Made by a program: the position numbers and the translations under genes. Positions 521 through 62,782 of a DNA stretch of 64,000 nucleotides are shown piece by piece (the first letter of the stretch is position 1; each line of letters opens with the position of its first letter). The DNA is taken from the NCBI GenBank assembly GCA_041499075.1, contig JBGQJN010000001.1:10388-74387 (forward strand), written 5' to 3'. Below the pieces are notes generated by a model. The model searched no databases, had not been told where the DNA came from, and saw only the letters and a program-made list of their open reading frames with translations. This DNA is from Minisyncoccia bacterium. Lineage in GTDB: Bacteria > Patescibacteriota > Minisyncoccia > 2-02-FULL-40-12 > IGHO2-01-FULL-4-A.

Positions 521-1031
521 GCTTGGTAAATCTATAAGCCGAATTCTGTTTTTGTGTGATTATTTATCTGGGACCGGTATTGCTACCGACCTCTAGCGTA
601 CTAACTTTTCGAGGCACCACATTACTGCGATGCAACGCTGTACTTGCACCAGGCAGGGTTTAGCGCGACATCCGCCTTGCGGCGGAGCGATCCCGTTCGG
701 GAACTTTTCACCCGCAGTCCACGGCTTGCGCCGTGGAGCTCGGAATAGTCTCTGTGCCACTTTCCCTAGATTTTCCCAGCTCCACTTTTTCTTATTTACA
801 ATATAAGTAAAATTGTAGTTCTAGATTGTACTACTATCTTACCTTTCTAGAAAACTCGAAAAGTGGGGCTGGGTTATATCCGGCGGCCGTTAACCGCTGC
901 CTTTGGCTTCACTAGTGCTACGCACCGCGTCAGTAAACTTAAGCAGTGCTTGCACTGCGTAGCTTTAGCGGAGCAGTGTTCAGACTTTCCTCCCCGACAT
1001 AATGTGGGGGCAATCACCCGATTTACCAAGC
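521..1031 (-). ncRNA. rnpB: RNase P RNA (bacterial ribozyme), unusually long (~510 nt) with an AU-rich internal insertion
   Basis: The minus strand reads GGGGAGGAAAGUCUGAAC near the 5' end, matching the conserved P4 5' strand GGAAAGUCCGGGC. Near the 3' end it reads ACAGAAUUCGGCUUAUAG, matching the conserved ACAGAAnnCGGCUUA; P4 pairing CUGAA/UUCGG is preserved. A GCGCUAAACCC motif resembles CGGUAAAC. The P1 stem pairs GAUUUACCAAGC at 1020-1031 with 521-532. The region is about 600 nt of non-coding, highly structured sequence. Confidence 0.65.
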
Positions 1032-6068: not shown

Positions 6069-6676
6069 TTCTTTTTTTTGATATGTTTCCAAACAAACCA
6101 GATCAAGCCAACAATAATTACCGCCCCGATCACAAGTTCAAATTTCTGAAAATACGGCCTCAAAACATCCCAGTGATTACCCGTAACATAGCCAATGTAA
6201 ACCAGCGGCAGATTCCAAACTAATGACCCAAGTAGAGTGTACCAAACAAATCTTTTAAAATTAATACGGCTAACACCAATAATCAAAGAACTGAAAGTCC
6301 TGACACCCGGTAAAAGTCTTGAAAAGAAGGCAATCTTCGCTTCATAACGACCTGACCAGCTTTCAAGCTTTCTGACATCGGATTGATTTATCAAAAAGTA
6401 TTTACCGTAACGATCGACTAGCGGCCGTCCACCTAAGAATCCAACGGTATAGATCGCCACCGCTCCGGCAATATTTGCCGCCGTTGCGATCAGTACGATT
6501 AGCCACAGATTAAGTTTGCCGCTTGAAGCTAGGAAACCGCTAAAAGGCAAAACTACCTCTGACGGAATCGGTATGGCGGCGCTTTCAAGCATCATTGTAA
6601 AAAAAATACCGCCATAACCGAACTTGGCAATCAGAGCTAGGGCCCAAGCTACTATTTTTTCTATAATTGGACTCAT
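6065..6676 (-). CDS. DedA/TVP38 family membrane protein
   Basis: 203 aa, multi-transmembrane, with the conserved DedA region FFSRLLPGVRTFSSLIIGVS. Confidence 0.7.
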   Translation of the reverse strand: MSPIIEKIVAWALALIAKFGYGGIFFTMMLESAAIPIPSEVVLPFSGFLASSGKLNLWLIVLIATAANIAGAVAIYTVGFLGGRPLVDRYGKYFLINQSDVRKLESWSGRYEAKIAFFSRLLPGVRTFSSLIIGVSRINFKRFVWYTLLGSLVWNLPLVYIGYVTGNHWDVLRPYFQKFELVIGAVIIVGLIWFVWKHIKKKK

Positions 6677-6679
6677 TTT

Positions 6680-7681
6680 TTAAATATGCGTTTCTTTCAG
6701 TATTTTGGCCGACTCATCCGGGTCAACTACATTTACATCAATGCCACTGCCCAATTCAAAAGCGCCGATCATTGAAACCTTTGGTATTATTTCTATATGC
6801 CAAGTGTAAAAATTATGAGCATCAATTTCTGTTGTATCGAGGGGCGCAGTGTGAATAAAAAAATTGTAATCGGGATTATTCAAACCGGCGTGCATATTTT
6901 TCAACACTATTTGCATAGCTTCGCCTAGATAAGTAAGCTGCTCTTCGGGCATCTTTTCAAAGTGGGCATGGCCTGTCTGCGGGAATATCCGGACTTCGTA
7001 GGGAGTTCTGGAAATAAAAGGACAAAAGGCGATAAAATATTCATTCTCATAAAGTATTCTTTTCTTTTCTTCTTTCTCCCAGTCAATCATGACGTCATAA
7101 ATCCGTTTTTTATTTTTTTTATAGAACTCAGCCGAACCGTTAATGCTCCTTTTGACATCCGGCGGCAGAACCGGAATGGAAATAATTTGGGAATGCGGGT
7201 GCTCGATGCTTGCTCCAGCTTGAGGTCCGTTGTTGTGGAAAATTAAAGTATATTTGCGAGAGCTGTGATCCAGCATGTCGAGATACCTGTCCTGGTAAAT
7301 CTTGAAAACTCTGGCCAATTCTTCTTTTGAAAATTGCCATAATTGCTTATCGTGATCCCTGAAAATCACTATCTCGTGCCGGCCAACGCCGTTTTCAACA
7401 TTGAATGGGCCGGCCTTTTTGATCTGGGCAATTTCACCTTCTAAAACGGCTGGGAATTTATTTTTGGTAACTTTGGCCGACCAGTCTGACTTATCATCAT
7501 TCCAGTAGGTCGCCAAAACCACGTTGCCGTATTTCTCCGGATCTTCAAAAGGGCACTTGTCCTTGGATAGCGCTTCAACCTCGGGCTTTTCTTTTTTGAT
7601 AGTGTCCGGCCTCTTAGCTCTGCCGGTCGCAAACAATACCCATTCGCCGGAAACCAGATCTTCACGAAATTCGTTTAACAT
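6680..7681 (-). CDS. Galactose-1-phosphate uridylyltransferase-like (HIT superfamily, GalT class I)
   Basis: SGEWVLFATGRAKRP plus the HPHSQI (HxHxQ) active-site motif. Confidence 0.6.
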   Translation of the reverse strand: MLNEFREDLVSGEWVLFATGRAKRPDTIKKEKPEVEALSKDKCPFEDPEKYGNVVLATYWNDDKSDWSAKVTKNKFPAVLEGEIAQIKKAGPFNVENGVGRHEIVIFRDHDKQLWQFSKEELARVFKIYQDRYLDMLDHSSRKYTLIFHNNGPQAGASIEHPHSQIISIPVLPPDVKRSINGSAEFYKKNKKRIYDVMIDWEKEEKKRILYENEYFIAFCPFISRTPYEVRIFPQTGHAHFEKMPEEQLTYLGEAMQIVLKNMHAGLNNPDYNFFIHTAPLDTTEIDAHNFYTWHIEIIPKVSMIGAFELGSGIDVNVVDPDESAKILKETHI

Positions 7682-15270: not shown

Positions 15271-15478
15271 TTTGAATAAGCAATTTTGAGTTAATAGCGG
15301 TCAAAAATCTTGCAATATCTTTCTTGGTTTTATTTATCTGACTAAAATCCTTCAAGGTCTTATTGGCCAATTCAAACCTCAATTTCCCCAAGCCAACCTT
15401 CAACTCTTTGAGCATTTCCTGAAGTTCTTCTTTACCCTTGTTTTGCAAATCTGCGTATTTCATAGTATTTGACATCAA
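15254..15478 (-). CDS. rpmC: Ribosomal protein L29
   Basis: Sequence and position. Confidence 0.8.
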
Positions 15479-15530
15479 TTTAACTTCTTGCTATTATACA
15501 GAAAAGTAGCAATTTAACAAGGAGCTTCAA

Positions 15531-15683
15531 ATGCTAATATTCAAGATACTAGGCATAGCAATCTATCTACTTGTTACCCTCAGCGTAGGTTATTCATTAA
15601 CTTCTTTATCTACTAAGGAAATCTTTAAGACCCTACTTCCAAGTTTTATTATTCTACTAATAGCATGTTACTTAATCCCTTAG
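15531..15683 (+). CDS. Small hydrophobic protein (50 aa, two predicted TM helices), antisense to the ribosomal-protein operon; followed by a terminator hairpin
   Basis: RBS aaggag 7 nt upstream of ATG; MLIFKILGIAIYLLVTLSVGYSLTSLSTKEIFKTLLPSFIILLIACYLIP. The hairpin cttgcaataaattgcaag plus T-run follows. Below the ORF-track size cutoff. Confidence 0.4.
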   Translation: MLIFKILGIAIYLLVTLSVGYSLTSLSTKEIFKTLLPSFIILLIACYLIP

Positions 15684-15743
15684 CGGCTCGGCCCAACTTG
15701 CAATAAATTGCAAGTTTTTATTTTTAAAAAAAGACAAGATTAA

Positions 15744-15952
15744 GCGTAGCAGGGTACCCTCTGGGGGATTCCAAAATTGGGAATTGCTGCTTGGTGAAGT
15801 TTCTTGTTGGCGGTGCTTTAGCCCGCCAATAGAATCTCCGTGGTCGCAAGCGGTATAATTATTCCTACCGCGAGCGAATTCACAATTTTGAAATAGTGGA
15901 GTCTGCCGCTGGAGCAGACGAAACGTCCTCCAGAGGATACCCTGCCGAAGCA
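15744..15952 (-). repeat. Structured intergenic repeat family 1, copy A (~210 nt, includes a 52-nt insertion relative to copy B); abuts rplP stop codon
   Basis: Near-identical to 18271-18429. Closing inverted repeat gcagggtaccctctgg / ccagaggataccctgc plus several internal hairpins. No coding potential. Confidence 0.7.
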
Positions 15953-16357
15953 CTATTTTTTAATAAACCTCGTCTTAATTGGTAACTTATGCGCCGCCAG
16001 TCTAAATGCCGCCCTTGCCGTCTCTTCACTTACACCATCCATTTCAAAAATTATCCGGCCGGCTTCCGTCGGTGCCACAAAATGCGACAATGACCCTGCG
16101 CCGCCGCCCATGCCCACTTCAGCGCCCTTCTGCGTCCTTGGCTTGTCAGGGAAAACTCTTATCCATAATTTACCGCCTCTTTGAATAAAATGGGTAACCG
16201 CGCGACGCGCCGATTCCAGCTGTGTCGCTTTTAGCCAGGTTGATTCCATCGCTTTTAAACCATAACTGCCAAAGCTCAAATAGTGGCCGCGGGTTGTGAC
16301 TTTTTTCAAACTTCCCTTATGTACCTTACGATGTTTTATTCTTTTAGGTTGTAACAT
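15953..16357 (-). CDS. rplP: Ribosomal protein L16
   Basis: MLQPKRIKHRKVHKG. Confidence 0.9.
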   Translation of the reverse strand: MLQPKRIKHRKVHKGSLKKVTTRGHYLSFGSYGLKAMESTWLKATQLESARRAVTHFIQRGGKLWIRVFPDKPRTQKGAEVGMGGGAGSLSHFVAPTEAGRIIFEMDGVSEETARAAFRLAAHKLPIKTRFIKK

Positions 16358-16358
16358 G

Positions 16359-16991
16359 TTATAATTTCAGTCCTTTATAAATCCAGACTTTGATTCCGAC
16401 GGTTCCGTACGTCGTATAGGCAGTAGCTTTGGCAAAATCTATATCCGCCCTCAAGGTCTGAAGCGGCAAACTGCCCTCTTCCAAATGCTCGGTCCTAGCT
16501 ATATCATTGCCGTCCAAACGTCCGCCGAGCCTGACTTTAGCCCCCTTAACATCGCGATTGGACATAATTTTAGCCAATGACTGCTTCAACACTCTGCGAT
16601 ATTGAATGCGCCGTTCTATTTGTTCGGCCATCTGTTCGGCGACAATGCGGGCTGAAGCTTCCGGATTTTTGACTTCCTGAACCTCAAGTCGAACGGCAGT
16701 TTTACGTTTGATTCTTTTGGCAATTTCCGTTTTTATGTCTTCGATGCCGGTGCCGCCGCGGCCAATTATCAAGCCGGGCCTGGCGGTTTTGATCGTAATC
16801 GCCAAAACATCCGGACTGCGCTCTATCTCGATACTGTCCACGCTCATATTTTTCAATTTCTTTTCAAGAAAATCCCTTATCAAAACGTCTTCTTTCAAAA
16901 ATTCCGTATAGTTTCTTAATTTAAACCAGCGGGATTTCCAGTCCTTGTTTATACTGAGCCTGAATGATGTTGGTGATATTTTCTGACCCAT
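16359..16991 (-). CDS. rpsC: Ribosomal protein S3
   Basis: KH domain and S3 C-terminal domain. Confidence 0.9.
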   Translation of the reverse strand: MGQKISPTSFRLSINKDWKSRWFKLRNYTEFLKEDVLIRDFLEKKLKNMSVDSIEIERSPDVLAITIKTARPGLIIGRGGTGIEDIKTEIAKRIKRKTAVRLEVQEVKNPEASARIVAEQMAEQIERRIQYRRVLKQSLAKIMSNRDVKGAKVRLGGRLDGNDIARTEHLEEGSLPLQTLRADIDFAKATAYTTYGTVGIKVWIYKGLKL

Positions 16992-17008
16992 ATTATTATA
17001 TCTATTAT

Positions 17009-17548
17009 TTATACAACTTTTCTTCTAAAAAATTTCTTGCCTAAGCCGCTGACTCTGCCGAATAGTCCGCCCTTCTTACCTAATTCCTTTTTGACTTCCG
17101 GCTTGGCGATTAATTTTTCAGTTTTGGATTCTTTTACTTCCGATTCCGAGGCTTTTTGTTTTGACTCCGGCTCCAGTTTTTTCATTTCAACTTCCTTGGC
17201 CGGCTTAAGGCCCGGTACTTTTTCTTCCAAGACAATCTTGATATGTGATGTCTTTTTTTCTATCGGCGAGGCCATGCCGAAACCTTTGGGTTTGAATCTT
17301 TTAAGCTTCGGCCCTTCGTTGACAATAATATCCTTGATAAAAAGATTCTCTCTGGCCAGGTTAAAATTATTTCTGGCGTTGGAAATCGCAGAATTGATCA
17401 GTTTGACTATCGGCTTGGATGATTTTTTAACAATATGATCAAGTTGATATTTAGCCGCATTCGCGTCCATACCCTTAATGATCCTGGCGACAAGTCTTAC
17501 CTTGCGCGGCGATATTCTTAAATTGTTTAATTGAGCTGTTACTTGCAT
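17009..17548 (-). CDS. rplV: Ribosomal protein L22 with long Lys/Glu-rich C-terminal extension
   Basis: The core MQVTAQLNNLRISPRKVRLVARIIKG is followed by ~80 extra residues. The start is placed at the internal Met to avoid overlap with rpsS. Confidence 0.8.
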   Translation of the reverse strand: MQVTAQLNNLRISPRKVRLVARIIKGMDANAAKYQLDHIVKKSSKPIVKLINSAISNARNNFNLARENLFIKDIIVNEGPKLKRFKPKGFGMASPIEKKTSHIKIVLEEKVPGLKPAKEVEMKKLEPESKQKASESEVKESKTEKLIAKPEVKKELGKKGGLFGRVSGLGKKFFRRKVV

Positions 17549-17549
17549 A

Positions 17550-17894
17550 TTATTTCTTTGCTTCCGCCTCCGGCGCCTTCGCGGCTTTGGCGGCATCTAT
17601 ATCTTTTTGCTTAGCGGCGGCTTCTATTTCTCTTTGCATTCGGCCTCCATGCCTGACAAATTTGCGCGTCGGAGAAAATTCTCCCAGCTTGTGGCCAACC
17701 ATATCTTCTGTTATCAAAACCTCTATAAAAATTTTGCCGTTATGCACTCCGAAAGTATAACCAACCATTTCCGGCGTAATCGTTGAAGCCCGCGCCCAAG
17801 TCTTGATTATCGTTTTATCGCCAGCCCTAAGCCGGCCGATCTTTTTCAGCAATTTCGCATCCACATATACACCCTTTTTTATTGATCTTGACAT
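17550..17894 (-). CDS. rpsS: Ribosomal protein S19
   Basis: Conserved GHKLGEF motif. Confidence 0.9.
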
Positions 17895-17950
17895 AACTTA
17901 TAATCTTTGATACCTTATATTAAATTTCGTTATTTTACAAGGAGAAAATT

Positions 17951-18184
17951 ATGGCTACGCAATACCCTCCGAATATGATTATTTACAGTAGAAGAGGCCA
18001 AATTTATAATTACCTAGCCAGTACCTGCTTGATCGTGGCGGTTCTACTCATGATCTCTACTTTCTTTCTGGATATTATCGGAATGAAACATTTGGCAAAC
18101 ATCATCATTCTCTCAGCACTTTTCACTGGTATATCTAGTCTAATTTTCAATATCAAAGCCTCGAAACATAGCACTGTGATTTAG
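17951..18184 (+). CDS. Small hydrophobic protein (77 aa, two predicted TM helices), antisense to the ribosomal-protein operon; followed by a terminator hairpin
   Basis: RBS aaggag upstream; MATQYPPNMIIYSRRGQIYNYLASTCLIVAVLLMISTFFLDIIGMKHLANIIILSALFTGISSLIFNI. The hairpin ctcgcgaaaaatcgcgag plus T-run follows at 18190-18220. Confidence 0.45.
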   Translation: MATQYPPNMIIYSRRGQIYNYLASTCLIVAVLLMISTFFLDIIGMKHLANIIILSALFTGISSLIFNIKASKHSTVI

Positions 18185-18270
18185 CTCTGACTCGCGAAAA
18201 ATCGCGAGTTTTTATTTTTAAAGCGGCGGAATCGAAATGCCTTGCGTGTATCGCACTTGCTAAAAATCAA

Positions 18271-18429
18271 GCGTAGGCAGGGTACCCTCTGGGGGATTCC
18301 AAAATTGGGAATTGCTGGGTCGCAAGCGGTATAATTATTCCTACCGCGAGCGAATTCACAATTTTGAAATAGTGGAGTCTGCCGCTGGAGCAGACGGAAC
18401 GTCCTCCAGAGAGTACCCTGCCGAAGCGC
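18271..18429 (-). repeat. Structured intergenic repeat family 1, copy B (~160 nt); abuts rplB stop codon
   Basis: Near-identical to copy A; same closing stem cagggtaccctctgg / ccagagagtaccctg. Confidence 0.7.
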
Positions 18430-19257
18430 TTACTTTTTCCTCCTTCTTACTATAAACTTACTAGATTTTTTCTTGCGGTTACGCGTCTTAACTCCCAGTG
18501 CGTGTTTGCCCCATGGTGTCTTCGGATATTTCAAACCGATTGATTGTCTGCCTTCTCCTCCGCCATGCGGATGATCCACTGGATTCATGGCCGAACCGCG
18601 CACTTTTGGCCGTCTACCAAGATAGCGCGAACGGCCGGCTTTGCCAAGACTGATCGAACCGTGTTCCGTGTTGGATAATTGCCCGATAGAAGCCATGACT
18701 TCACCGCTAAAACGCCTGACTTCAGATGACGGCATAACCACCTGGACATACTTGCCTTCGTGCGCCAGCACCGTGGCACCGCCGCCAGCCGAGCGGACCA
18801 CCTGCCCGCCTTTGCCCGGCTGTAACTCAAGATTGTGGACTATCGTGCCTTGAGGGATATTTTTAAGTTTCATCCTGTTGCCCGGCTCAAGCGCCGTTTT
18901 TTCAGAAGCGACAATGCTACTGCCGGCCCTTAATCCTTCCGGAGCGAGAATGTACCTTCGCTCGCCGTCGGAGTAATGCAGTCTGGCGATCCTTGCGGTA
19001 CGATTTGGATCGTACTCAATGGAGAAAACTTTAGCCGGTATGTTCACTTTGTCCTGTTTGAAATCAATAAACCGGTAAACCCTCTTCACGCCGCCGCCGC
19101 GATGTCGGGAGGTTATCCGACCTTGGTTATTCCTGCCGACCGCACGCTGAAAACCGGTCATTAGATTCTTCAACGGCTCAACTTTGGACAGATTTGAGTA
19201 ATCATAACCCAGCATCTGCCTTCGTCCCGGGGTTGTCGGTTTGTATATTTTGGACAT
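18430..19257 (-). CDS. rplB: Ribosomal protein L2
   Basis: 275 aa, VDHPHGGGEG motif. Confidence 0.95.
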   Translation of the reverse strand: MSKIYKPTTPGRRQMLGYDYSNLSKVEPLKNLMTGFQRAVGRNNQGRITSRHRGGGVKRVYRFIDFKQDKVNIPAKVFSIEYDPNRTARIARLHYSDGERRYILAPEGLRAGSSIVASEKTALEPGNRMKLKNIPQGTIVHNLELQPGKGGQVVRSAGGGATVLAHEGKYVQVVMPSSEVRRFSGEVMASIGQLSNTEHGSISLGKAGRSRYLGRRPKVRGSAMNPVDHPHGGGEGRQSIGLKYPKTPWGKHALGVKTRNRKKKSSKFIVRRRKK

Positions 19258-23834: not shown

Positions 23835-24368
23835 ATGAATCTAAACAAAGTTTTCTTAATCGGCCGGCTGGCCGCAGATCCGGAATCGCGTACAACACCA
23901 TCGGGGCAGACCGTGACTACTTTAAGATTGGCCACAAATCGCGTTTGGAATAACAGAACTACTGGCGAGAAACAAGAACAGGTTGAGTTTCACACCGTGA
24001 TTGCCTGGGGTAATCTCGCCGAAATATCCTCCAAATACTTACGCAAAGGCCAGCTGGCGCTTTTTGAAGGCCGGATACAGACAAGGTCATGGCAAGGCCA
24101 AGATGGTGTCAAGCGTTATCGCACCGAGATCGTAGCCGACGGCTTACAGTTGGGACCCAAGGCCAGCAATATGCCTGGTAGTTATACGCCAAGGGACTCA
24201 ACATCGGATCAGCAAGTCCAGAGCAATAAACCAGCTTCCGCCGCTAGCACAATAAAAGAAGAAGATATTCCGGTTATCAACGAAGACTCCCCTATTACCA
24301 GCGATCCGGTTATAGCCGATAGCGAAGTGGAGGAAAGTGAAATTAATCTTAAGGATATACCTTTTTAA
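23835..24368 (+). CDS. ssb: Single-stranded DNA-binding protein
   Basis: OB-fold N-terminus LIGRLAADPESRTTPSGQTVTTLRLATNR...FHTVIAWGNLAE and an acidic C-terminal tail ending DIPF. Confidence 0.9.
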   Translation: MNLNKVFLIGRLAADPESRTTPSGQTVTTLRLATNRVWNNRTTGEKQEQVEFHTVIAWGNLAEISSKYLRKGQLALFEGRIQTRSWQGQDGVKRYRTEIVADGLQLGPKASNMPGSYTPRDSTSDQQVQSNKPASAASTIKEEDIPVINEDSPITSDPVIADSEVEESEINLKDIPF

Positions 24369-24369
24369 T

Positions 24370-24582
24370 ATGGTTTGCATTTGTTGCCAGGAAAAAATTA
24401 ATCACGTTGATTATAAAAATACGGACATCCTCCGTAAGTTTGTCTCGGGCCAATTTAAGATCTCCTCTTCTGCCCGCACCGGCCTGTGCCAGAACCATCA
24501 GCGCATGGTCGCCAACGCCGTTAAACTCGCCAGATATATGGCACTGATGCCATATACGAAGTTACAGACATTGAAAAAATAG
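24370..24582 (+). CDS. rpsR: Ribosomal protein S18 (copy 1)
   Basis: MVCICCQEKINHVDYKNTDILRKFVS...; starts 1 nt after the ssb stop. Confidence 0.9.
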   Translation: MVCICCQEKINHVDYKNTDILRKFVSGQFKISSSARTGLCQNHQRMVANAVKLARYMALMPYTKLQTLKK

Positions 24583-26348: not shown

Positions 26349-26384
26349 CCCAGGAGATGTGTTAGCAGATTTAATTCTAGCGGC

Positions 26385-26712
26385 GCTTTTTGAAGGCCGG
26401 ATTCAGACAAGATCATGGCAAGGCCAGGATGGCGTCAAACGCTACCGCACCGAGATTGTAGCCGATGGTTTACAACTGGGACCCAAGGCAAGTAATCCAA
26501 GCACTGCGAATTATCAATCAAACAATCAGACATCGAGACCATCCTCCTACACCTCTCCTTCGCATAAAGCTCCGGATGAGCAAAGCAAGTCTTCGGTAAA
26601 GGAAGAAGACATTCCCGTTATCAATGAAGACTCTCCCATTACCAGCGATCCGGTTATTTCTGATAGTGATGTGGAAGAAACGGAAATTAATTTAAAAGAT
26701 ATACCGTTCTAA
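26385..26712 (+). pseudogene. Diverged duplicate of the ssb 3' half (lacks OB-fold N-terminus)
   Basis: About 85-90% nucleotide identity to 24060-24368. Encodes LFEGRIQTRSWQGQDGVKRYRTEIVADGLQLGPKASN...EEDIPVINEDSPITSDPVI...INLKDIPF. The unrelated upstream frame supplies an ATG. Confidence 0.7.
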
Positions 26713-26814
26713 TCAACGAATAGCGAATATGTACGAATATACCAATATACGAAATGGATTAATTAGTACTTTCGTAAATTAGTATAAATTCGTAATTCGT
26801 TGATAGCGACAAGC

Positions 26815-27024
26815 ATGTGTATTTGTTGCCAGGAAAAAATTAATCACGTTGATTACAAAAATACGGACATCCTCCGCAAGTTTGTTTCCGGTCAATTTAA
26901 GATTTCTTCTTCGGCCCGCACCGGCCTGTGCCAGAATCATCAGCGCATGGTCGCCAACGCCGTCAAACTCGCCCGGTATATGGCGTTGATGCCTTATACC
27001 AAGTTACAAACTATAAAAAAATAA
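26815..27024 (+). CDS. rpsR: Ribosomal protein S18 (copy 2, intact paralog; many synonymous differences vs copy 1)
   Basis: MCICCQEKINHVDYKNTDILRKFVSGQFKISSSARTGLCQNHQRMVANAVKLARYMALMPYTKLQTIKK. Confidence 0.75.
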   Translation: MCICCQEKINHVDYKNTDILRKFVSGQFKISSSARTGLCQNHQRMVANAVKLARYMALMPYTKLQTIKK

Positions 27025-43200: not shown

Positions 43201-43403
43201 TTGTCCGCTCAGCGAGCGGACTGCATTCCGTTGAAAGCGTGGATTTTACTCGCAGTGGCGAATTATACTGCTCACAAACCATGCAATCCACTCTTTCAAC
43301 GGTGCTATAGAGCATGTGCGCCAGACTCAAAAATTTATCCAAAAATTACAAACCGGAGCCGATAGCAATCGGCGATACCTGGCAATCAGATAGTTATTAA
43401 GTA

Positions 43404-43486
43404 AAGGATGTTTTAGTAGGCGGAGGCGCGTGCGTTTTGCGCCTGTCCCGAAGGGCCAGCAAAACACGCGCGCGTAGCCGTACTAA
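43404..43486 (-). repeat. Intergenic repeat family 3 (~85 nt GC-rich hairpin element), copy 1
   Basis: Reverse complement is nearly identical to 58386-58469. Core gcgcgtgcgttttgc-gcctgtcccgaagggccagc-gcaaaacacgcgcgc. Confidence 0.6.
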
Positions 43487-56929: not shown

Positions 56930-57820
56930 ATGCCGACTACCGAAGAACTAAAAAAAGAACTTGAAGAGATCCAAAAACAACTCGCTGATGCCGAGTTTGT
57001 TTTAGATTACAAACGAGTGGTTGAAGCATCTAAACGCTATGCTGAGATCGAACGACTGCTCTCTGGCGGCCCTTCGACAAGCTCAGGGCAAGTCCGGTCA
57101 GAGGTTATTGTAGAAATCCGCGCCGGTACCGGCGGTGAGGAGGCGGCACTTTTTGCCAACACTCTTTTTGAAATGTACAAAAAATACGCCATACTCCAAG
57201 GCTGGCGGTTGGATGTGCTTGATTACAGCCGCACTACAATCGGCGGTTACAAAAATATTACTTTTGAAACTTCCGGCAAAGATGCTGGCACAAAAATGCT
57301 ATATGAATCAGGCGTGCATCGCGTTCAGCGTATTCCCGAGACGGAAAAAAGCGGCCGGGTACATACCTCAACGGTCACCGTGGCAGTCCTGCCCAAGGCT
57401 AAAGAAAGTGAGATTGAGATAAAACCTGATGATATTGAGATGTCCGCTTACCGTTCCGGCGGTCCGGGCGGTCAAAATGTTAACAAGGTATCCACCGCCG
57501 TCAGAATTCTGCACAAGCCGTCAGGCATCGTTGTCAGCTCGCAAGAGGAACGCTCGCAGGCGCGCAATAAGGAGCGGGCCCTTGATATTCTGCGTGCAAA
57601 GTTGTTAGATATCAAAAGAAGCCGTGAAGTCGGTGTTGTCACCGAAGAACGGCGCAAACAAATAGGTTCGGCCGAGAGAGCAGAAAAGATCCGGACTTAC
57701 AACTTCCCCCAAGACCGCATCACCGACCACCGCATCAAAAAAAGCTGGGGTAACATAGAAAAAATACTTAACGGCTACCTGGAACCAATAACTGAAGAAT
57801 TAAGCAAACAACTAAAATGA
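56930..57820 (+). CDS. prfA: Peptide chain release factor 1-like (short, 296 aa)
   Basis: GGQ motif ([12 protein letters not shown]) and a PxT-type tripeptide (RIPETE) rather than SPF. Confidence 0.75.
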
Positions 57821-58332
57821 CAGAGTATCAACCGGAATTAATGACTCCGCCAGACAATAAATACCCGGGTAGCGGGCCGGTCTTTGAAGCCGGACCAGGC
57901 TGGGGCAAAAAGCTAAATGAGTGGTTTAAGAAAAATTTTGCTAAATGGATTCTACCGGTAGTGGGAGCTGTGATCATAGCTGCCATCATATTAAATCTTT
58001 ACAAAAATAATCCCGGGGCAACGGCGACGCCAACTGTTGCCAATACCAACTTGATCTCACAGCCGGTGCAAAAGGGTGACAGCCGCACACTTGTAGCACG
58101 CCATGCTTTGGCCCAATATCTACAGATGAATCCTGATCAATCCCTTACAAACGGCCAGAAACTATTCATAGAAGAAGTACTTAGACGCAAAATAGATGCC
58201 AAACCCCTGGCTGTCGGCACAACAATTGAATTCAGCGTATCTGACATCGAATCTGCTATTTCCCAGGCCAAGCAACTCGCCCCCTCCACTCTTGCTAAAT
58301 GGGAAATCTACGCCAAAAACGTTAGGTTTTAG
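57817..58332 (+). CDS. Hypothetical membrane protein (171 aa)
   Basis: One TM helix; ORF only. Confidence 0.35.
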
Positions 58333-58385
58333 TTGTAATCAAAAATTAAAAACTAGCTTAGCAAAAACTTTTTAGTACGGTTGCG

Positions 58386-58469
58386 CACGTGCGTTTTGCT
58401 GGCCCTTCGGGACAGGCGCAAAACACACGTGCCTCCACCTACTGGAACATCCTTTGATTGGTAATTAGG
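58386..58469 (+). repeat. Intergenic repeat family 3, copy 2 (inverted relative to copy 1)
   Basis: agtacggttgcgcacgtgcgttttgctggcccttcgggacaggcgcaaaacacacgtgcctccacctactggaacatcctttg. Confidence 0.6.
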
Positions 58470-58540
58470 CAAGTTAAAAAAACCACCGACTGGTGTCGGT
58501 TTGTGGTTTTTAATTTTTGATTACAATGAAACAGGAGCGA

Positions 58541-58700
58541 GGCTGGGTAGTGCTTTGTGGGTATTCCAGCGAGCAGATTGCTTGGTTAATTTTTGATACA
58601 ATTTTTCCTCATCAAAAATTAAATCTGTGAGATGAAATAGCGGAGCCGCCGCTGGAGCGGCGGAGCGTACCAAAAAAGCACTACCCTGCCGAGCGCTACT
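58541..58700 (-). repeat. Intergenic repeat family 1, diverged copy C
   Basis: ...gaaatagcggagccgccgctggagcggcggagcgtacc...taccctgccgagcgctact parallels the 3' half of copies A and B. The 5' part gggtagtgctttgtgggtattccagcgag parallels gggtaccctctgggggattccaaaattg. Confidence 0.5.
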
Positions 58701-58726: not shown

Positions 58727-59413
58727 CTACTGATGCGTTATGAAGGCAAAATCCATTTTTTCTACAAAATAATTGCGAAAGTTTTTAGGCAAGGAGTTTA
58801 GTACGTCAGGTACTGTCCACGGCCGTTTTGCTATATGGTCACGAATTACTTTGGGATCAGAATACAGCTCCCCCAAATCTACCAGAATGATGTTGCCGTC
58901 GGCGCTTGTAGCAAAGTTATCCGTAATAAGAAAATTCCTATCAATGAGCGAATGTCCGATCAGGGTTTTATTAAATTCAACAAAAGCGTCAATAATTTTT
59001 TTAGCTTCTTCTAACGTCGCGGACTTCAAGCATCTACGCAATGGAGTGACTTTATCCTGTTCGTAATCAAGTTCATTGAGAACCCTAGGGTTACCGAGTA
59101 CCCGACCCTCTAGCGTGGTATGCAGGATTTTTTGTATTGATCCGGCAGCTTCTTGCCGGCATCTTTTATAGTATTTATGAAATTTCCAAAAAGGATGCCT
59201 GACGTAAGGAAAACTGTCATGTAACATCATGAGATAAGCAGTAAAACGAGTGTTGAATTTCTTTAACACTCTAGCGTTACCTATGTCATAAGTTGTATAC
59301 TGCCACCCCCTGCCAATTACTTTCATATCTTTATTGTGCCAACATCTGTTTAATTGTTTGATAGACGGGTTTTTGACTGCCGTCATAACGAAGAATGCCG
59401 AAGAAATTTTCAT
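58727..59413 (-). CDS. Hypothetical protein with protein-kinase-like features (Gly-rich loop IGRGWQYTTYDIGNARVLKKF; DLG motif)
   Basis: Motif-level resemblance only; the true start may be the internal MKVIGRGW (~59329). Confidence 0.35.
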   Translation of the reverse strand: MKISSAFFVMTAVKNPSIKQLNRCWHNKDMKVIGRGWQYTTYDIGNARVLKKFNTRFTAYLMMLHDSFPYVRHPFWKFHKYYKRCRQEAAGSIQKILHTTLEGRVLGNPRVLNELDYEQDKVTPLRRCLKSATLEEAKKIIDAFVEFNKTLIGHSLIDRNFLITDNFATSADGNIILVDLGELYSDPKVIRDHIAKRPWTVPDVLNSLPKNFRNYFVEKMDFAFITHQ

Positions 59414-60467
59414 TTGTACTGTTGCTGGTACCTAAGTCTTTGTAACTGTAGAAGAACAACGGGCCAGCCCAGGAATAGCTGCGAACCAAGTTGATACCGT
59501 CCTGGTAAATAGTAGACTGCAGGCCCTCTGAAACATGATCGGGGTTTTTGCTCAAGTTACTATTGGTAAGCGAGGCTTCCGCGCCCGGTCCGTCTGTCGG
59601 AGCACCGAATTCTGTCATCCAGATTTGCTTACTTGCATCACTGTTTGTGATCATTATACTGCGTAAACTCGGATTAGTCACCGATATCTGCGACCAAGCA
59701 TTTGAGTTAGCCGGTCTTGAGGGAAATGAGTATGGGTGGACCCCAATAGCGTCAAAATAATTTTTGGCGTTATTTTCATATAATTGGGAAATAAAATCTA
59801 CCGGCAGGATATCGCCCCTGGCAGTATTAGCCGGACCGACGCCACCTGTTACCACAAAGGCAGTAGGGTCCTCGCTTTTTATCGCGTTATGGACAGCTTT
59901 AAGAAGATCGGTGTAGTCGGCGGCATCAGGGGAGGGCTCCCAAAATGTTTTCAAATTAGGTTCGTTCCATATTTCCCAATTATGTATGCCTTGTGAAGCA
60001 TAGCGCTGAACGGCGGCGGCGGCAAATGTAGCGAAGGCGGAGTTATCCGCCGGCCGACATTGGGCTGAAAAACAGCCATCTTGACGTGCCCAAGGCGGCG
60101 TATAGTCAAGTATCGGGAGTAACTTAATGTGGCGAATATTGGCAGCCGTCACAAGACGATCAATGGCATTCCAATTAAAACTATCGGCATCATTTGGCTG
60201 AACACTACTCCAATCAATGTCAAAGCGCAGCCAACCGATATTTAGCGACACCAGGTCATCTAACTCCGCGTTTACATCACCCTTACCCCGTGAAAGAATT
60301 GTACCGGTTGATACGCCGAATCTATATGCAACTGGATTTTTTACAACAGTGGTGCCAGGAATTGAAATAATAAAACTACCCGACAAAAAATACCAAATTA
60401 AAAACATCCCGCCTAAAAAAATAACCAGCGATCCTAAAAATAACTTGAAGTGTCCCTTTTTTCTCAT
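59331..60467 (-). CDS. Secreted GH5-like (clan GH-A) glycoside hydrolase, 378 aa
   Basis: N-terminal TM/signal, IWNEPN acid/base motif and MTEFG nucleophile motif. Confidence 0.65.
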   Translation of the reverse strand: MRKKGHFKLFLGSLVIFLGGMFLIWYFLSGSFIISIPGTTVVKNPVAYRFGVSTGTILSRGKGDVNAELDDLVSLNIGWLRFDIDWSSVQPNDADSFNWNAIDRLVTAANIRHIKLLPILDYTPPWARQDGCFSAQCRPADNSAFATFAAAAVQRYASQGIHNWEIWNEPNLKTFWEPSPDAADYTDLLKAVHNAIKSEDPTAFVVTGGVGPANTARGDILPVDFISQLYENNAKNYFDAIGVHPYSFPSRPANSNAWSQISVTNPSLRSIMITNSDASKQIWMTEFGAPTDGPGAEASLTNSNLSKNPDHVSEGLQSTIYQDGINLVRSYSWAGPLFFYSYKDLGTSNSTNENFFGILRYDGSQKPVYQTIKQMLAQ

Positions 60468-60483
60468 AAATTAATCAGTCCGT

Positions 60484-60768
60484 CTATTCCCTGACGAGAT
60501 TCCAAACAAAGAAGGAGACAAAAGACATCAAAAAACATATGGCACCGAATGTGTCCTCGCGGGGAAATGGCAAGAGGTGCGTCAACGGTAGTTCAAGTGT
60601 TTCCGGATGAGTGGAGGCATTAACTGCAATATAGATCCAACCCAGCAATCCAAAAACAAACAAGGTTAATGAAAGTGAACGAATTATTTTTATATTATCT
60701 ATCCTCATATCTTTATTGTACCAGCATCTGCTTAATTGTCTGATAGGCAGGTTTTTGACTGCCGTCAT
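60484..60768 (-). pseudogene. Remnant of the kinase-like gene produced by tandem duplication (shares MTAVKN..QL.RCW.NKDM N-terminus with 58727..59413, then unrelated hydrophobic tail)
   Basis: 59330-59390 and 60710-60770 are about 85% identical. Confidence 0.4.
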
Positions 60769-62782
60769 ATCTTAATACGCCAAAGAAGTTCTCATTGGTG
60801 CTTGAACTGGTACCCAAGTCTTTGTAACTGTAGAAGAATATCGGGCCAGCCCAGGAATAGGTGCGAACCAGGTTAATGGCGTCGCCTATGATTAAGCTTT
60901 GAAGTTCTTCCGTGACATGGTCAGGGCTTGCATCTAGGTTATAATTGGTTGCCGTGGCCAATGCTCCCGGTCCGCCTGTCGGAGCGCCGAATTCTGTCAT
61001 CCAGATTTGCTTGGCTGAATCGCCGTTTGTGATCATTATACTGCGTAAACTCATCGATGTAAGCGACATCTGTGACCAGGCATTCCATGATGCCGAATAT
61101 GATGGCTTAACGGGGTATGAATATGGATGAAACCCAACCTGGTCAAAATATGGCCTAGCCCCGTTCTGATACATCTGGTTGAGATAATTTACCGGTGCAA
61201 TATTGCCGCCGCCTGTGGCAGAAGGTGCCATGCCACCGGATATGACAACTGCCGAAGAGTCTTTATTTTTTATGGCCGGGTAGACTGCTTTAAGTAAGTT
61301 TGTATACTCAAGTGAATCAGCTCCCGAGCTCCAGAATGATGTTGAATTCGGTTCGTTCCATATCTCCCAGTTATGTATGCCCTGCGGAGCATAGCGCTGA
61401 ACGGCAGCGGCAGCAAATGCGGCAAAAGCGGAGTCATCTGCCGGCGGACACCATAAAAAAGAGGAGCAGCTGACAGACCTGGCCCAAGCCGGTGTATCGT
61501 CTAATACGGGAAGTAACTTTATATTGTGGGTGTTAGCCGCTGCGACCAAACTATCTATCACACTCCAATGAAAAGTCGATGCACCGCTAGATTGGATGCT
61601 GTTCCAACTAATATCAAAACGGAGCCACGTAATTCCCAGAGAAGCCATATCACTAAGCCGAGCATTCAATTCGGTACTGGATAGGGAAAGAAATGTTTCA
61701 CCTACCGACATGCCAAAATTATTAGAAATAATAGTTGTCGGGGTTGGAGTCAGCGTTGGTGTTGTCGTAGGCGTTGGAGCCGGAGATGCAGAGACAATAG
61801 TCGAGGGAGTTGGTGTCGGAGTTTTTGTTGGTATGGGTGTTGGGATTACAGTCGGTGTTGAGATAGAGGTTGAACTTGGGGTAGGGATTGGAGTCAAACT
61901 AGGAGTTGGGGCAGGTGTGGAAGTATAGCTTGGGGTTGTCGAAGGCATTGGAGCCGAAGATCCCGATACGGCAGGCGAGGAAGTTGGAGTAGGAGTTGGT
62001 GTTGAATTCGGAACTGGGGTGAGGGTTGGTGTCAGCATTAGGGTAGCTGAAGGTCCTGGGCTTGGGGTTGTCGAAGGAGTTGGGGTCAATTTAGCAGTTG
62101 ATATCGGGGCGGCGTTTACTATTAATCGCGTAGTGCTTAGTTTGTAGCCAACATTACCCTTGTTATCATGAGTTTCAAGACTGTACCACCAAGTACCTTT
62201 AGCCGGAGTATCCTGTAAAACAGAGGCCCAAGAATCCAGATTCGCCGGAACATTAGTAGTCGCCACAGCCGACCAAATACAATCTGATTTCTTACTTGTA
62301 TTACATTTTGATACCGAATATGGAGCATGATTGAGACCCACATAACTTAAATGCGAACCGCCGGAATCGGTGACTGTAAATGATGCTGTCATGGAATCGC
62401 CGGCATTTATACTGCGTGGCTGTATATCAAACAAATTAACCACGGGGACGGTCCCGTCATCGGCCGGTAAAGGAATCGGTGTAGGGCTGGTAGTACCGGC
62501 ATTCTTAGGGATAGAAGCGAGCTGGCTGTCTGCCCCGATATCGATTATAGTCTCATTTATGTTTCCCAGTTTAAAAATTGTGGTTACCGGCGGGAAAAAG
62601 AAAATAACCAAAAACGCTTCGACAACAAAGAGTATCGACAGACCAATAATAAGTTTGAATTTTGATGTTTTGTAGATAATGTTTTTATAATACCGGATTT
62701 TTTTCCTTTTGATATTATGCCAAAAAAATGTATACTTTATTCTTGGCATCACATCATACCATAAATGACGTATTCTCCACAA
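60713..62782 (-). CDS. Secreted GH5-like glycoside hydrolase paralog with N-terminal Ig/FN3-like domain and Pro/Thr-rich linker (689 aa)
   Basis: C-terminal 330 aa is paralogous to 59331..60467 (IWNEPN, MTEFG); the PT-rich segment is TPTPTPTSSPAVSGSSAPMPSTTPSYTSTPAPTPSLTPIPTPSS... Confidence 0.65.
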   Translation of the reverse strand: MWRIRHLWYDVMPRIKYTFFWHNIKRKKIRYYKNIIYKTSKFKLIIGLSILFVVEAFLVIFFFPPVTTIFKLGNINETIIDIGADSQLASIPKNAGTTSPTPIPLPADDGTVPVVNLFDIQPRSINAGDSMTASFTVTDSGGSHLSYVGLNHAPYSVSKCNTSKKSDCIWSAVATTNVPANLDSWASVLQDTPAKGTWWYSLETHDNKGNVGYKLSTTRLIVNAAPISTAKLTPTPSTTPSPGPSATLMLTPTLTPVPNSTPTPTPTSSPAVSGSSAPMPSTTPSYTSTPAPTPSLTPIPTPSSTSISTPTVIPTPIPTKTPTPTPSTIVSASPAPTPTTTPTLTPTPTTIISNNFGMSVGETFLSLSSTELNARLSDMASLGITWLRFDISWNSIQSSGASTFHWSVIDSLVAAANTHNIKLLPVLDDTPAWARSVSCSSFLWCPPADDSAFAAFAAAAVQRYAPQGIHNWEIWNEPNSTSFWSSGADSLEYTNLLKAVYPAIKNKDSSAVVISGGMAPSATGGGNIAPVNYLNQMYQNGARPYFDQVGFHPYSYPVKPSYSASWNAWSQMSLTSMSLRSIMITNGDSAKQIWMTEFGAPTGGPGALATATNYNLDASPDHVTEELQSLIIGDAINLVRTYSWAGPIFFYSYKDLGTSSSTNENFFGVLRYDGSQKPAYQTIKQMLVQ

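Follow-up and report, generated by a model that had tools for sequence, protein, structure and literature searches.

Here, we examine two small open reading frames (ORFs) that lie on the opposite strand inside the S10/spc ribosomal protein gene cluster of a Minisyncoccia bacterium, together with a structured repeat, family-1, that stands beside each of them. The stretch analyzed (hereafter the window) comprises 64,000 nucleotides (nt) of contig JBGQJN010000001.1 (assembly GCA_041499075.1). Its sequence matches contig JBGPMC010000002.1 (metagenome-assembled genome GCA_041486835.1) and one Joint Genome Institute contig, and the closest relatives of its S19 protein are S19 proteins labelled Candidatus Yanofskybacteria (Parcubacteria, candidate phyla radiation, CPR). 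An original prediction, made from the letters of the window, had taken the two ORFs for type I toxin-like modules, each paired with a copy of the repeat, or alternatively for cargo of a small mobile module.

On the minus strand, the genes follow the order tuf-S10-L3-L4-L23-L2-S19-L22-S3-L16-L29-S17-L14... The cluster is densely packed and leaves only two large spacers, one between L2 and S19 and the other between L16 and L29. In both of these, a small ORF runs against the strand of the S10/spc cluster and converges on L2 or L16, in agreement with the antisense placement first proposed. For comparison, more than 100 loci were fetched; they carry three-digit labels (L004, L106 and so on), to be distinguished from the ribosomal proteins L2 to L29. 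A contig scan with S19 as the query, whose listed matches came mostly from distant phyla, contributed few usable Parcubacteria loci.

Two apparently self-contained units in the ribosomal protein cluster

The spacers and the parts of the two units are as follows.

15479-15952: spacer between L16 and L29, 474 nt
15519-15524, plus strand: AAGGAG Shine-Dalgarno (SD) sequence of the 50-amino-acid (aa) ORF, 6 nt ahead of the ATG; 2 nt of it also belong to the minus-strand -35 box
15531-15683, plus strand: 50-aa ORF with two hydrophobic segments; an orphan, possibly coding
15695-15726, plus strand: intrinsic terminator of the 50-aa ORF from the terminator scan (hairpin 15695-15716, 9-bp stem, loop of 4, T-run)
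17895-18429: spacer between L2 and S19, 535 nt
17939-17944, plus strand: AAGGAG SD of the 77-aa ORF, 6 nt before the ATG, inside the conserved motif GTTATTTTACAAGGAG
17951-18184, plus strand: 77-aa gene, member of a conserved two-helix membrane-protein family (77-90 aa, nine clusters)
18189-18220, plus strand: intrinsic terminator of the 77-aa gene from the terminator scan (9-bp hairpin 18189-18210, T-run)

Both ORFs, their AAGGAG sites, their hydrophobic segments and their terminators were found exactly where the original prediction had placed them. Each product has two hydrophobic segments with peaks of 2.1-2.5 (Kyte-Doolittle, window 19), and no similarity was detected between the two peptides, as had been noticed from the start. 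At the composition of the window, an ATG-started frame stays open for at least 49 codons by chance with p of about 0.05 and for at least 76 codons with p of about 0.009. The combination of AAGGAG, a gap of 4-9 nt and ATG occurs only five times on both strands of the 64 kb; the ribosomal protein genes of the window lack this consensus, which both small ORFs possess. Compared with shuffled sequences, the predicted 5' leaders show no excess of folding (z = +0.53 and +0.32), and the SD is open. At both ends, a hairpin containing G+C is followed by a T-run on the transcribed strand, as expected of an intrinsic terminator, and the two stems differ from one another in a compensatory manner (TTGCAA/TTGCAA versus TCGCGA/TCGCGA); the stems covary across species as well. 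With promoter-like hexamers (described below), an SD, an ORF and a terminator, each ORF is apparently a self-contained plus-strand expression unit, referred to here as a cassette.

A conserved family of predicted two-helix membrane proteins

A word-indexed protein search with the 77-aa sequence returned only the query itself. A full HMMER scan with the same query retrieved five relatives of 79-90 aa with 33-47% identity, and a profile search enlarged the family to nine clusters. A family of small membrane proteins is thereby added, one to which standard word-based searches are blind. The family alignment holds eight invariant columns, with the motif P.N.IIY..G.iY at the N-terminus, an Asp between the helices and LIF..KS.K.ST at the C-terminus. 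From this alignment, AlphaFold2 predicts a two-helix hairpin (pLDDT, the predicted local distance difference test score, of 80; helices at 14-43 and 46-72) in which short N- and C-terminal strands pair. A Foldseek search of the model against the PDB gave generic helical hairpins (e.g., ferritins), none with E < 0.001, and in Pfam and NCBIfam no family reached its cut-off for the small ORFs, the sub-threshold matches being to generic membrane families. Between L089 and L090, the gene differs by three synonymous and no non-synonymous changes and encodes the same protein, while a more distant pair of family members differs by five synonymous and eight non-synonymous changes.

All members with usable context lie antisense in the S10 ribosomal cluster. 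They are divergent from S19 in the window, L090, L106/L107 and L108, and from L29 in L100-L102, the P0129 contig, L089 and L091; either spacer can therefore be occupied, depending on the species. The original prediction had proposed a search for both peptides in related genomes, and the 77-aa ORF is conserved there at the same operon positions. Judged by its alignment and its synteny, it is a real, conserved gene. Its product would be a fast-evolving, lineage-restricted small membrane protein, for which translation and membrane insertion are predicted.

In the L089 and L091 contigs, the gene stands between L2 and L29 with S19-L22-S3-L16 missing, while in L090 the same protein adjoins S19. The L2-ORF-L29 order may have arisen by true rearrangement, or by chimeric assembly through the repeated cassettes.

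Opposed promoter-like elements

Upstream of each small ORF, promoter-like hexamers were found on both strands.

15469-15497, plus strand: sigma-70-like promoter for the 50-aa ORF, TTGACA-17-TATTAT, TG-extended (11/12 matches in the promoter scan)
15493-15520, minus strand: promoter-like site for L29 and the downstream ribosomal protein genes, TTGTTA-16-TATAAT
17888-17916, plus strand: promoter-like site for the 77-aa ORF, TTGACA-17-TACCTT (9/12 matches)
17912-17940, minus strand: promoter-like site for S19-L22-S3-L16, TTGTAA-17-TAAGGT; the heptamer TACCTTA is common to it and the plus-strand -10

On the L29 side, the -35 of the 50-aa ORF promoter overlaps ATGTCAA at the 5' end of L29, and the -10 boxes of the two strands are offset by 1 nt within the heptamer TATTATA. 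On the S19 side, the -35 of the 77-aa ORF promoter overlaps the S19 start codon and its -10 is weak in the window genome; orthologous cassettes read TATTAT, TATACT or TATATT at this position, and on the minus strand the orthologs in L090, L091 and L108 read TTGTAA-17-TATAAT.

The arrangement recurs among the cassettes. The motif GTTATTTTACAAGGAG holds the SD of the ORF, and its opposite strand reads CTCCTTGTAA, in which TTGTAA forms a -35 box; upstream of S19 or L29, this box is separated by 16-17 nt from a hexamer resembling TATAAT. In a scan of 13 cassettes, the ORF strand carries TTGAC(A/T), overlapping the ATGTCAA that starts S19 or L29, at exactly 17 nt from TAnnnT in 11, and the ribosomal protein strand carries TTGT(A/T/C)A-16/17-TATAAT-like elements; in 8 of the 13, a shift of 1 nt separates the two -10 boxes (TANNNTA). 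In bacterial bidirectional promoters, -7T and -11A pair reciprocally and the start sites lie 18 bp apart (PMC10268837). Overlapping -10 boxes with this reciprocity within TANNNTA are present on the L29 side (TATTATA) and on the S19 side (TACCTTA). We infer from the layout of these motifs a candidate bidirectional promoter for the small ORF and for S19 or L29.

The orphan ORF and the changing content of the cassettes

This history of conservation does not extend to the 50-aa ORF. An exact look-up gave no match and the ORF is not recorded as a called gene; among the fetched loci, no relative emerged from tblastn, from a six-frame profile search or from profile-profile comparison, so that the ORF fails the conservation check which the original prediction had set. 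Nor was a link to the 77-aa family or to the ORFs of L005 found by tblastn, profile or profile-profile searches.

The setting of this ORF, on the other hand, is shared. L005 (GCA_964358785.1) and L007 (GCA_001794195.1) carry insertions in the same two spacers as the window, with the same leader/SD motif and terminator as the window cassettes, around unrelated ORFs of 100 and 80 aa in L005 and very short ones of 25 and 14 aa in L007. The leader/SD motif and the terminator are kept in L005, L007, L089-L091, L100 and L106, including those cassettes whose ORF is unrelated or spans just 14-25 codons. In all cassettes, a consensus SD and an ATG stand at a fixed spacing and the frame extends to the terminator. 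Across the window and the fetched loci, GTTATTTTACAAGGAG followed by a small ORF occurs only at these cassettes. By this comparison, the frame of promoter, SD and terminator is paralogous between the two spacers, and the 50-aa ORF, which occupies one of these cassettes, may be young or decaying.

The junctions themselves vary among Parcubacteria. Neither carries an insertion in the Yanofskybacteria genome L008. At the junction of L2 and S19, a hydrophilic 99-aa antisense ORF is inserted in L015 (326-836) and several sense-strand membrane-protein genes in L017 (1723-4501), and this junction is a recurrent breakpoint or insertion point in other Parcubacteria. An apparent insertion between S19 and L22 that distinguishes L004 from L005 is merely a run of N.

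Family-1, a structured element of its own

The window holds four copies of family-1 and, next to the 77-aa gene, a possible relic of another element.

15743-15952, minus strand: copy c1, abutting the L16 stop codon (15953-15955), with an extra 52-nt hairpin; 70.6 bits
18223-18246: what is left of an older element, one arm of its outer stem; compared by eye, it agrees at about 90% with the P1 arm of the orthologous element in L106
18270-18429, minus strand: copy c2, abutting the L2 stop codon (18430-18432); z = -7.5 and -8.8; 107.7 bits
43185-43315, plus strand: copy c4, diverged; lies upstream of rpsB, on the strand opposite to both neighboring genes; 44 bits, E = 3e-8
58535-58697, minus strand: copy c3, located some 28 nt past the stop of a minus-strand gene of 228 aa, with a different core subtype and no small ORF beside it; 147 bits

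The element measures about 130-220 nt. Copies c1 and c2 are 94-97% identical over two shared blocks (55 and 110 nt). A metagenome collection scanned with the segments conserved between diverged copies gave five true members; two of eight pattern matches there (L093 and L098) were chance matches inside coding sequence. An alignment of eight sequences supports four paired regions: P1, the long outer stem; P2, a hairpin (GCUCCAGCGGC); P3, a helix; and P4, a second hairpin. They are connected by the conserved junctions CGYUCC, UCCRCUAUUUC, CCAAGCAAU and GGAAU. The pairing has 94.6% of cells paired and compensatory changes on both sides in 22 of 40 pairs, with the caveat that the structure was derived from the same sequences on which it was tested; slid controls reach 37-50% and 2-6 such pairs, and none of 500 shuffles reaches the observed value. 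Family-1 thus behaves as a conserved structured RNA, in which pairs are kept by compensatory substitutions, and the excess of G-U over A-C mismatches (25 versus 7) favors the strand of the upstream gene. No match at the gathering score was found for the window in Rfam 15, and no consistent match up to E = 5-10 for four members; the relaxed matches were scattered and due to chance. Covariation is unusually clear for a family absent from Rfam. A scan of viral contigs for the repeat core produced a single chance match, which the covariance model rejected.

With the covariance model, 12 copies (11 distinct) were found, four in the window and eight (seven distinct) in other Parcubacteria loci; L096 and L106 each contribute two. 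In ten of the 12 cases, the stop codon that directly precedes the copy belongs to a gene on the same strand; these genes include L2, L16, L14, L7/L12, GrpE and a LemA-like gene. Each copy has an outer stem of its own, even within one genome (both copies of L096, both of L106). From these positions and structures, family-1 is a dispersed and structured element in the 3' untranslated region (UTR) of same-strand genes, and probably a mobile one.

Two more specific identities were considered for the element and rejected. The closing stem does not represent the terminal repeats of a miniature inverted-repeat transposable element (MITE), because the outer stem is copy-specific; in addition, no direct repeat flanks c1 or c2 and no transposase lies nearby. 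A general role as the intrinsic terminator of the operon was dropped because most copies have no following U-run.

Individual copies differ in their modules. An internal 52-nt hairpin of c1 (15790-15841) is absent from c2, and a hairpin of about 46 nt inside the element of L090 (2094-2139) is cleanly absent from that of L089; such clean presence and absence suggests nested insertions or a modular gain and loss of stems. The outermost stem arm of c3, AGCGCT(T)CGGCAGGGTA, is common to c1 and c2 despite the different core subtype of c3. In L099, the 16S rRNA gene (823-2154) has an insertion at about E. coli position 790 that contains a copy (735-870, minus strand); an additional 24-bp hairpin surrounds this copy, which lies immediately 5' of a group I intron (230-700) with an ORF inside.

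The original prediction had paired each small ORF with a repeat. This holds within the window and fails as a rule, since 9 of the 12 family-1 copies stand without a neighboring cassette and some cassettes have no family-1: those of L100-L102 have only a short hairpin after L16, while L005, L007 and L089-L091 have other long-hairpin elements in its place. The question of whether the peptides always co-occur with the repeat is thereby answered in the negative. Judged by these loci, family-1 is an element separate from and independent of the cassette, and the two are found together only because both occupy the junction at which two genes converge.

Turnover can also be followed between strains. 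The near-identical strains L004 and L005 have an identical S19 protein and a cassette identical base for base, and wholly different hairpin elements directly after the L16 stop (6715-7000 in L004, 6617-6720 in L005), a difference which is direct evidence for recent element turnover. The segment at 18223-18246 looks like a leftover arm of an element that is still present at the orthologous site of L106.

Other hairpin elements and repeats in the window

A second family of hairpin repeats (GCGCGTGCGTTTTGC...CCTTCGGG...GCAAAACGCACGCGC) is present in the window at 43400-43470 and 58360-58440 and in L005 at 6660-6760, where it is located after L16. At 58328-58531, a long inverted repeat with 26-nt arms 152 nt apart begins at the stop of the plus-strand gene 57817-58332; as c3 follows it, the 440-nt spacer holds two long-stem elements back to back. 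Two ORFs extend across family-1, one of 93 aa in the window (15672-15953, minus strand), which appears only in the mechanical ORF listing, and one of 166 aa in L106 (1091-1591, plus strand), which is on record as a called gene; it is almost certain that neither is a gene. Hairpin elements, in other words, yield spurious ORF calls and possibly chimeric assemblies too, and tiny Parcubacteria genomes carry several families of them with fast turnover at the 3' ends of genes.

Apart from these, diverged direct duplications (75-90% identity) were noted at 24056-24581 and 26382-27023, near the S6/SSB region, and at 59323-60059 and 60705-61450, within an adjacent pair of large genes.

Three proposed transcription units and their antisense genes

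The explanation that we favor, and consider probable while leaving real room for doubt, is that cassettes encoding small membrane proteins divide the ribosomal cluster at bidirectional promoters into three units, with a separate repeat at the gene ends. In this Yanofskybacteria-like lineage, S10/spc would be cut into ...L23-L2 | S19-L22-S3-L16 | L29-S17-... Each cut would be a compact cassette that begins with a plus-strand, near-consensus sigma-70-type promoter, its -35 lying over the first codons of S19 or L29. A short unstructured leader, a consensus SD and a small ORF for a two-segment membrane protein would follow, and an intrinsic terminator would halt plus-strand transcription before L2 or L16. 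On the opposite strand, S19 or L29 would have its own promoter, with the -35 abutting the SD of the ORF and the -10 overlapping that of the ORF promoter. Because the opposed promoters would overlap, the small gene and the downstream ribosomal genes would fire from one bidirectional promoter, and their expression would be coupled or in competition. Family-1, being separate, would merely happen to sit at the ends of L2 and L16.

This explanation draws on the anatomy of the cassettes, their conservation and synteny, the covariation of the repeat and its independence from the cassette, and it would extend to promoter activity, translation, membrane insertion and regulatory coupling as predicted consequences. 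Several observations weigh against it. No similarity is detectable among the 50-aa ORF, the two ORFs of L005 and the two of L007; with unrelated ORFs at equal positions, the ORF is possibly incidental at some sites. The T-richness of the plus strand would by itself render random ORFs hydrophobic. The shared -10 box on the S19 side is weak in the window (TACCTT / TAAGGT), the conservation of AAGGAG may be due in part to the flanking -35 box of the opposite strand and, to our knowledge, CPR promoters have not been characterized experimentally. Finally, in the spacers L2|S19 and L16|L29 the terminator scan detected no intrinsic terminator for the operon strand, so that read-through RNA antisense to the small genes is possible.

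Some of these points could also mean that the ORFs are by-products, and that selection acts on a bidirectional promoter and a terminator which insulates L2 and L16 from divergent transcription, the hydrophobicity arising from T-richness (35% T and 14% G on the ORF strand within the ORFs). Symmetrical -10 elements often give divergent transcripts that are non-coding (PMC10268837), the 50-aa ORF is an orphan, and the frame is conserved around the unrelated or very short ORFs of L005 and L007. The 77-aa family, however, is left unexplained, with its full-length similarity in nine clusters, its invariant residues and its confident two-helix model. In addition, the SD-to-ATG spacing is fixed and the frame reaches the terminator in every cassette, and a frame open over 76 codons or more would seldom arise by chance (about 0.009). 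We regard this account as unlikely.

Somewhat more doubtful is the type I toxin-antitoxin-like reading of the original prediction, in which membrane-damaging peptides would be curbed by antisense RNA from read-through or from the repeat. The ORFs are indeed small and hydrophobic, their content differs between lineages, and their convergence on L2 and L16 in the absence of a canonical operon-strand terminator makes antisense RNA plausible. Nevertheless, no known toxin family was matched in Pfam or NCBIfam, and the 77-aa protein, with its two helices and conserved polar ends, belongs to a family that is strictly syntenic and looks vertically inherited rather than sporadic. A strong, open SD behind an unstructured leader is unlike typical toxin mRNAs. 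As to the antitoxin, the promoter scan found no conserved dedicated promoter downstream of the ORFs, and the sole minus-strand promoter-like site there, a 9/12 match inside the repeat, is at chance level (11 sites found versus 6.0 +/- 2.3 expected) and absent from other family-1 members. The repeat mostly occurs without a small ORF, and the L007 cassettes are reduced to 14-25 codons with promoter and terminator kept. On this evidence the toxin reading is improbable.

The least credible account, that repeat, terminator, ORF and promoter form one mobile element inserted twice in the operon, would fit the leader, SD spacing, terminator and repeat that both cassettes have in common, the occurrence of the 77-aa family in either spacer in different species and the recurrent insertions between L2 and S19 in other Parcubacteria, but the whole unit has no bounding terminal repeats, the ends of the repeat show no evident target duplication, no transposase was found, cassettes occur only at these two operon positions in the material examined and the repeat turns over independently. 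What remains of the mobile cargo originally envisaged is the paralogous frame and the choice of either spacer; the hallmarks of transposition are missing.

Returning to the cassettes at bidirectional promoters, we put forward a broader proposal only tentatively, as two linked possibilities: that family-1 is a so far undescribed kind of structured RNA in Parcubacteria, or else a mobile element in the shape of an RNA, and that the cassettes are a conserved means to wire a fast-evolving small membrane protein to ribosomal protein promoters by way of a shared bidirectional promoter. If so, family-1, with its four-helix core and copy-specific outer stem, would insert into, or be retained in, the 3' UTR right after stop codons, in addition to its insertion in rRNA, which would point to hairpin-targeting insertion or to a function at the RNA level such as processing or 3'-end protection. 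The wiring of the cassettes would let envelope or host-contact functions track the growth rate in an episymbiotic bacterium.

Comparison with known systems

In E. coli, the S10 operon ends at S17 and spc begins at L14. The window resembles the S10-spc-alpha boundaries of E. coli in that a long ribosomal cluster is split into several promoter-driven units; the breaks are instead at L2|S19 and L16|L29, each with an antisense protein-coding gene. Since S10/spc is among the most conserved gene orders of bacteria, a non-ribosomal gene retained inside it, on the opposite strand and at the same two junctions across species, is unusual.

Type I toxins are usually under 60 aa, hydrophobic and typically possess one transmembrane helix. 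The likeness to type I loci (hok/Sok, ldr/Rdl, tisB/IstR, fst/RNAII, txpA/RatA, bsrG/SR4) is that the ORF is small and hydrophobic and has a promoter and a terminator to itself. In txpA/RatA and bsrG/SR4, the layout is convergent and the antisense RNA covers the 3' end of the toxin gene, and the convergent layout here could likewise yield antisense RNA over the 3' end of the ORF. The 50-aa ORF falls within the size of type I toxins but has two hydrophobic segments, and the 77-aa family (77-90 aa) has two helices. Differences from type I loci are the lack of a toxin-family match, the two helices and conserved termini of the 77-aa protein, its fixed synteny in a housekeeping operon, the lack of a dedicated antitoxin promoter and the exposed SD in an unstructured leader.

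Family-1 shares with REP/BIME and with MITEs (Correia/NEMIS, RUP, ERIC) a dispersed, intergenic distribution usually just 3' of genes, a long stem, several copies per genome and turnover between strains. It departs from them in its conserved multi-helix core, conserved junction nucleotides and compensatory changes, in an outer stem that is unique to each copy in place of a conserved terminal inverted repeat, and in a strong bias for the strand of the upstream gene, with no target duplication and no known partner transposase. The L099 copy, situated in a 16S insertion beside a group I intron, recalls the rRNA intervening sequences of CPR bacteria, and its closing helix is of the kind that RNase III removes from such sequences (PMC11270868). 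Of the 12 copies, 11 lie outside rRNA, and processing would be suggested by analogy.

The closest parallel to the promoters is found in the bacterial bidirectional promoters of Warman et al. (2021), as far as these are summarized in PMC10268837 and PMC12825309. Common to both are a TANNNTA shared by opposed -10 boxes, a -35-like hexamer 16-18 nt away on each strand and one arm that drives an mRNA operon. Relative to those summaries, the offset is -2 rather than +1 in L090, L091 and L108, both arms apparently drive coding genes and the layout is kept across species at two positions of the ribosomal cluster. The cassettes would be a clean case, provided by nature, of a bidirectional promoter with coding genes on its arms, in an uncultured phylum for which promoters are unmapped.

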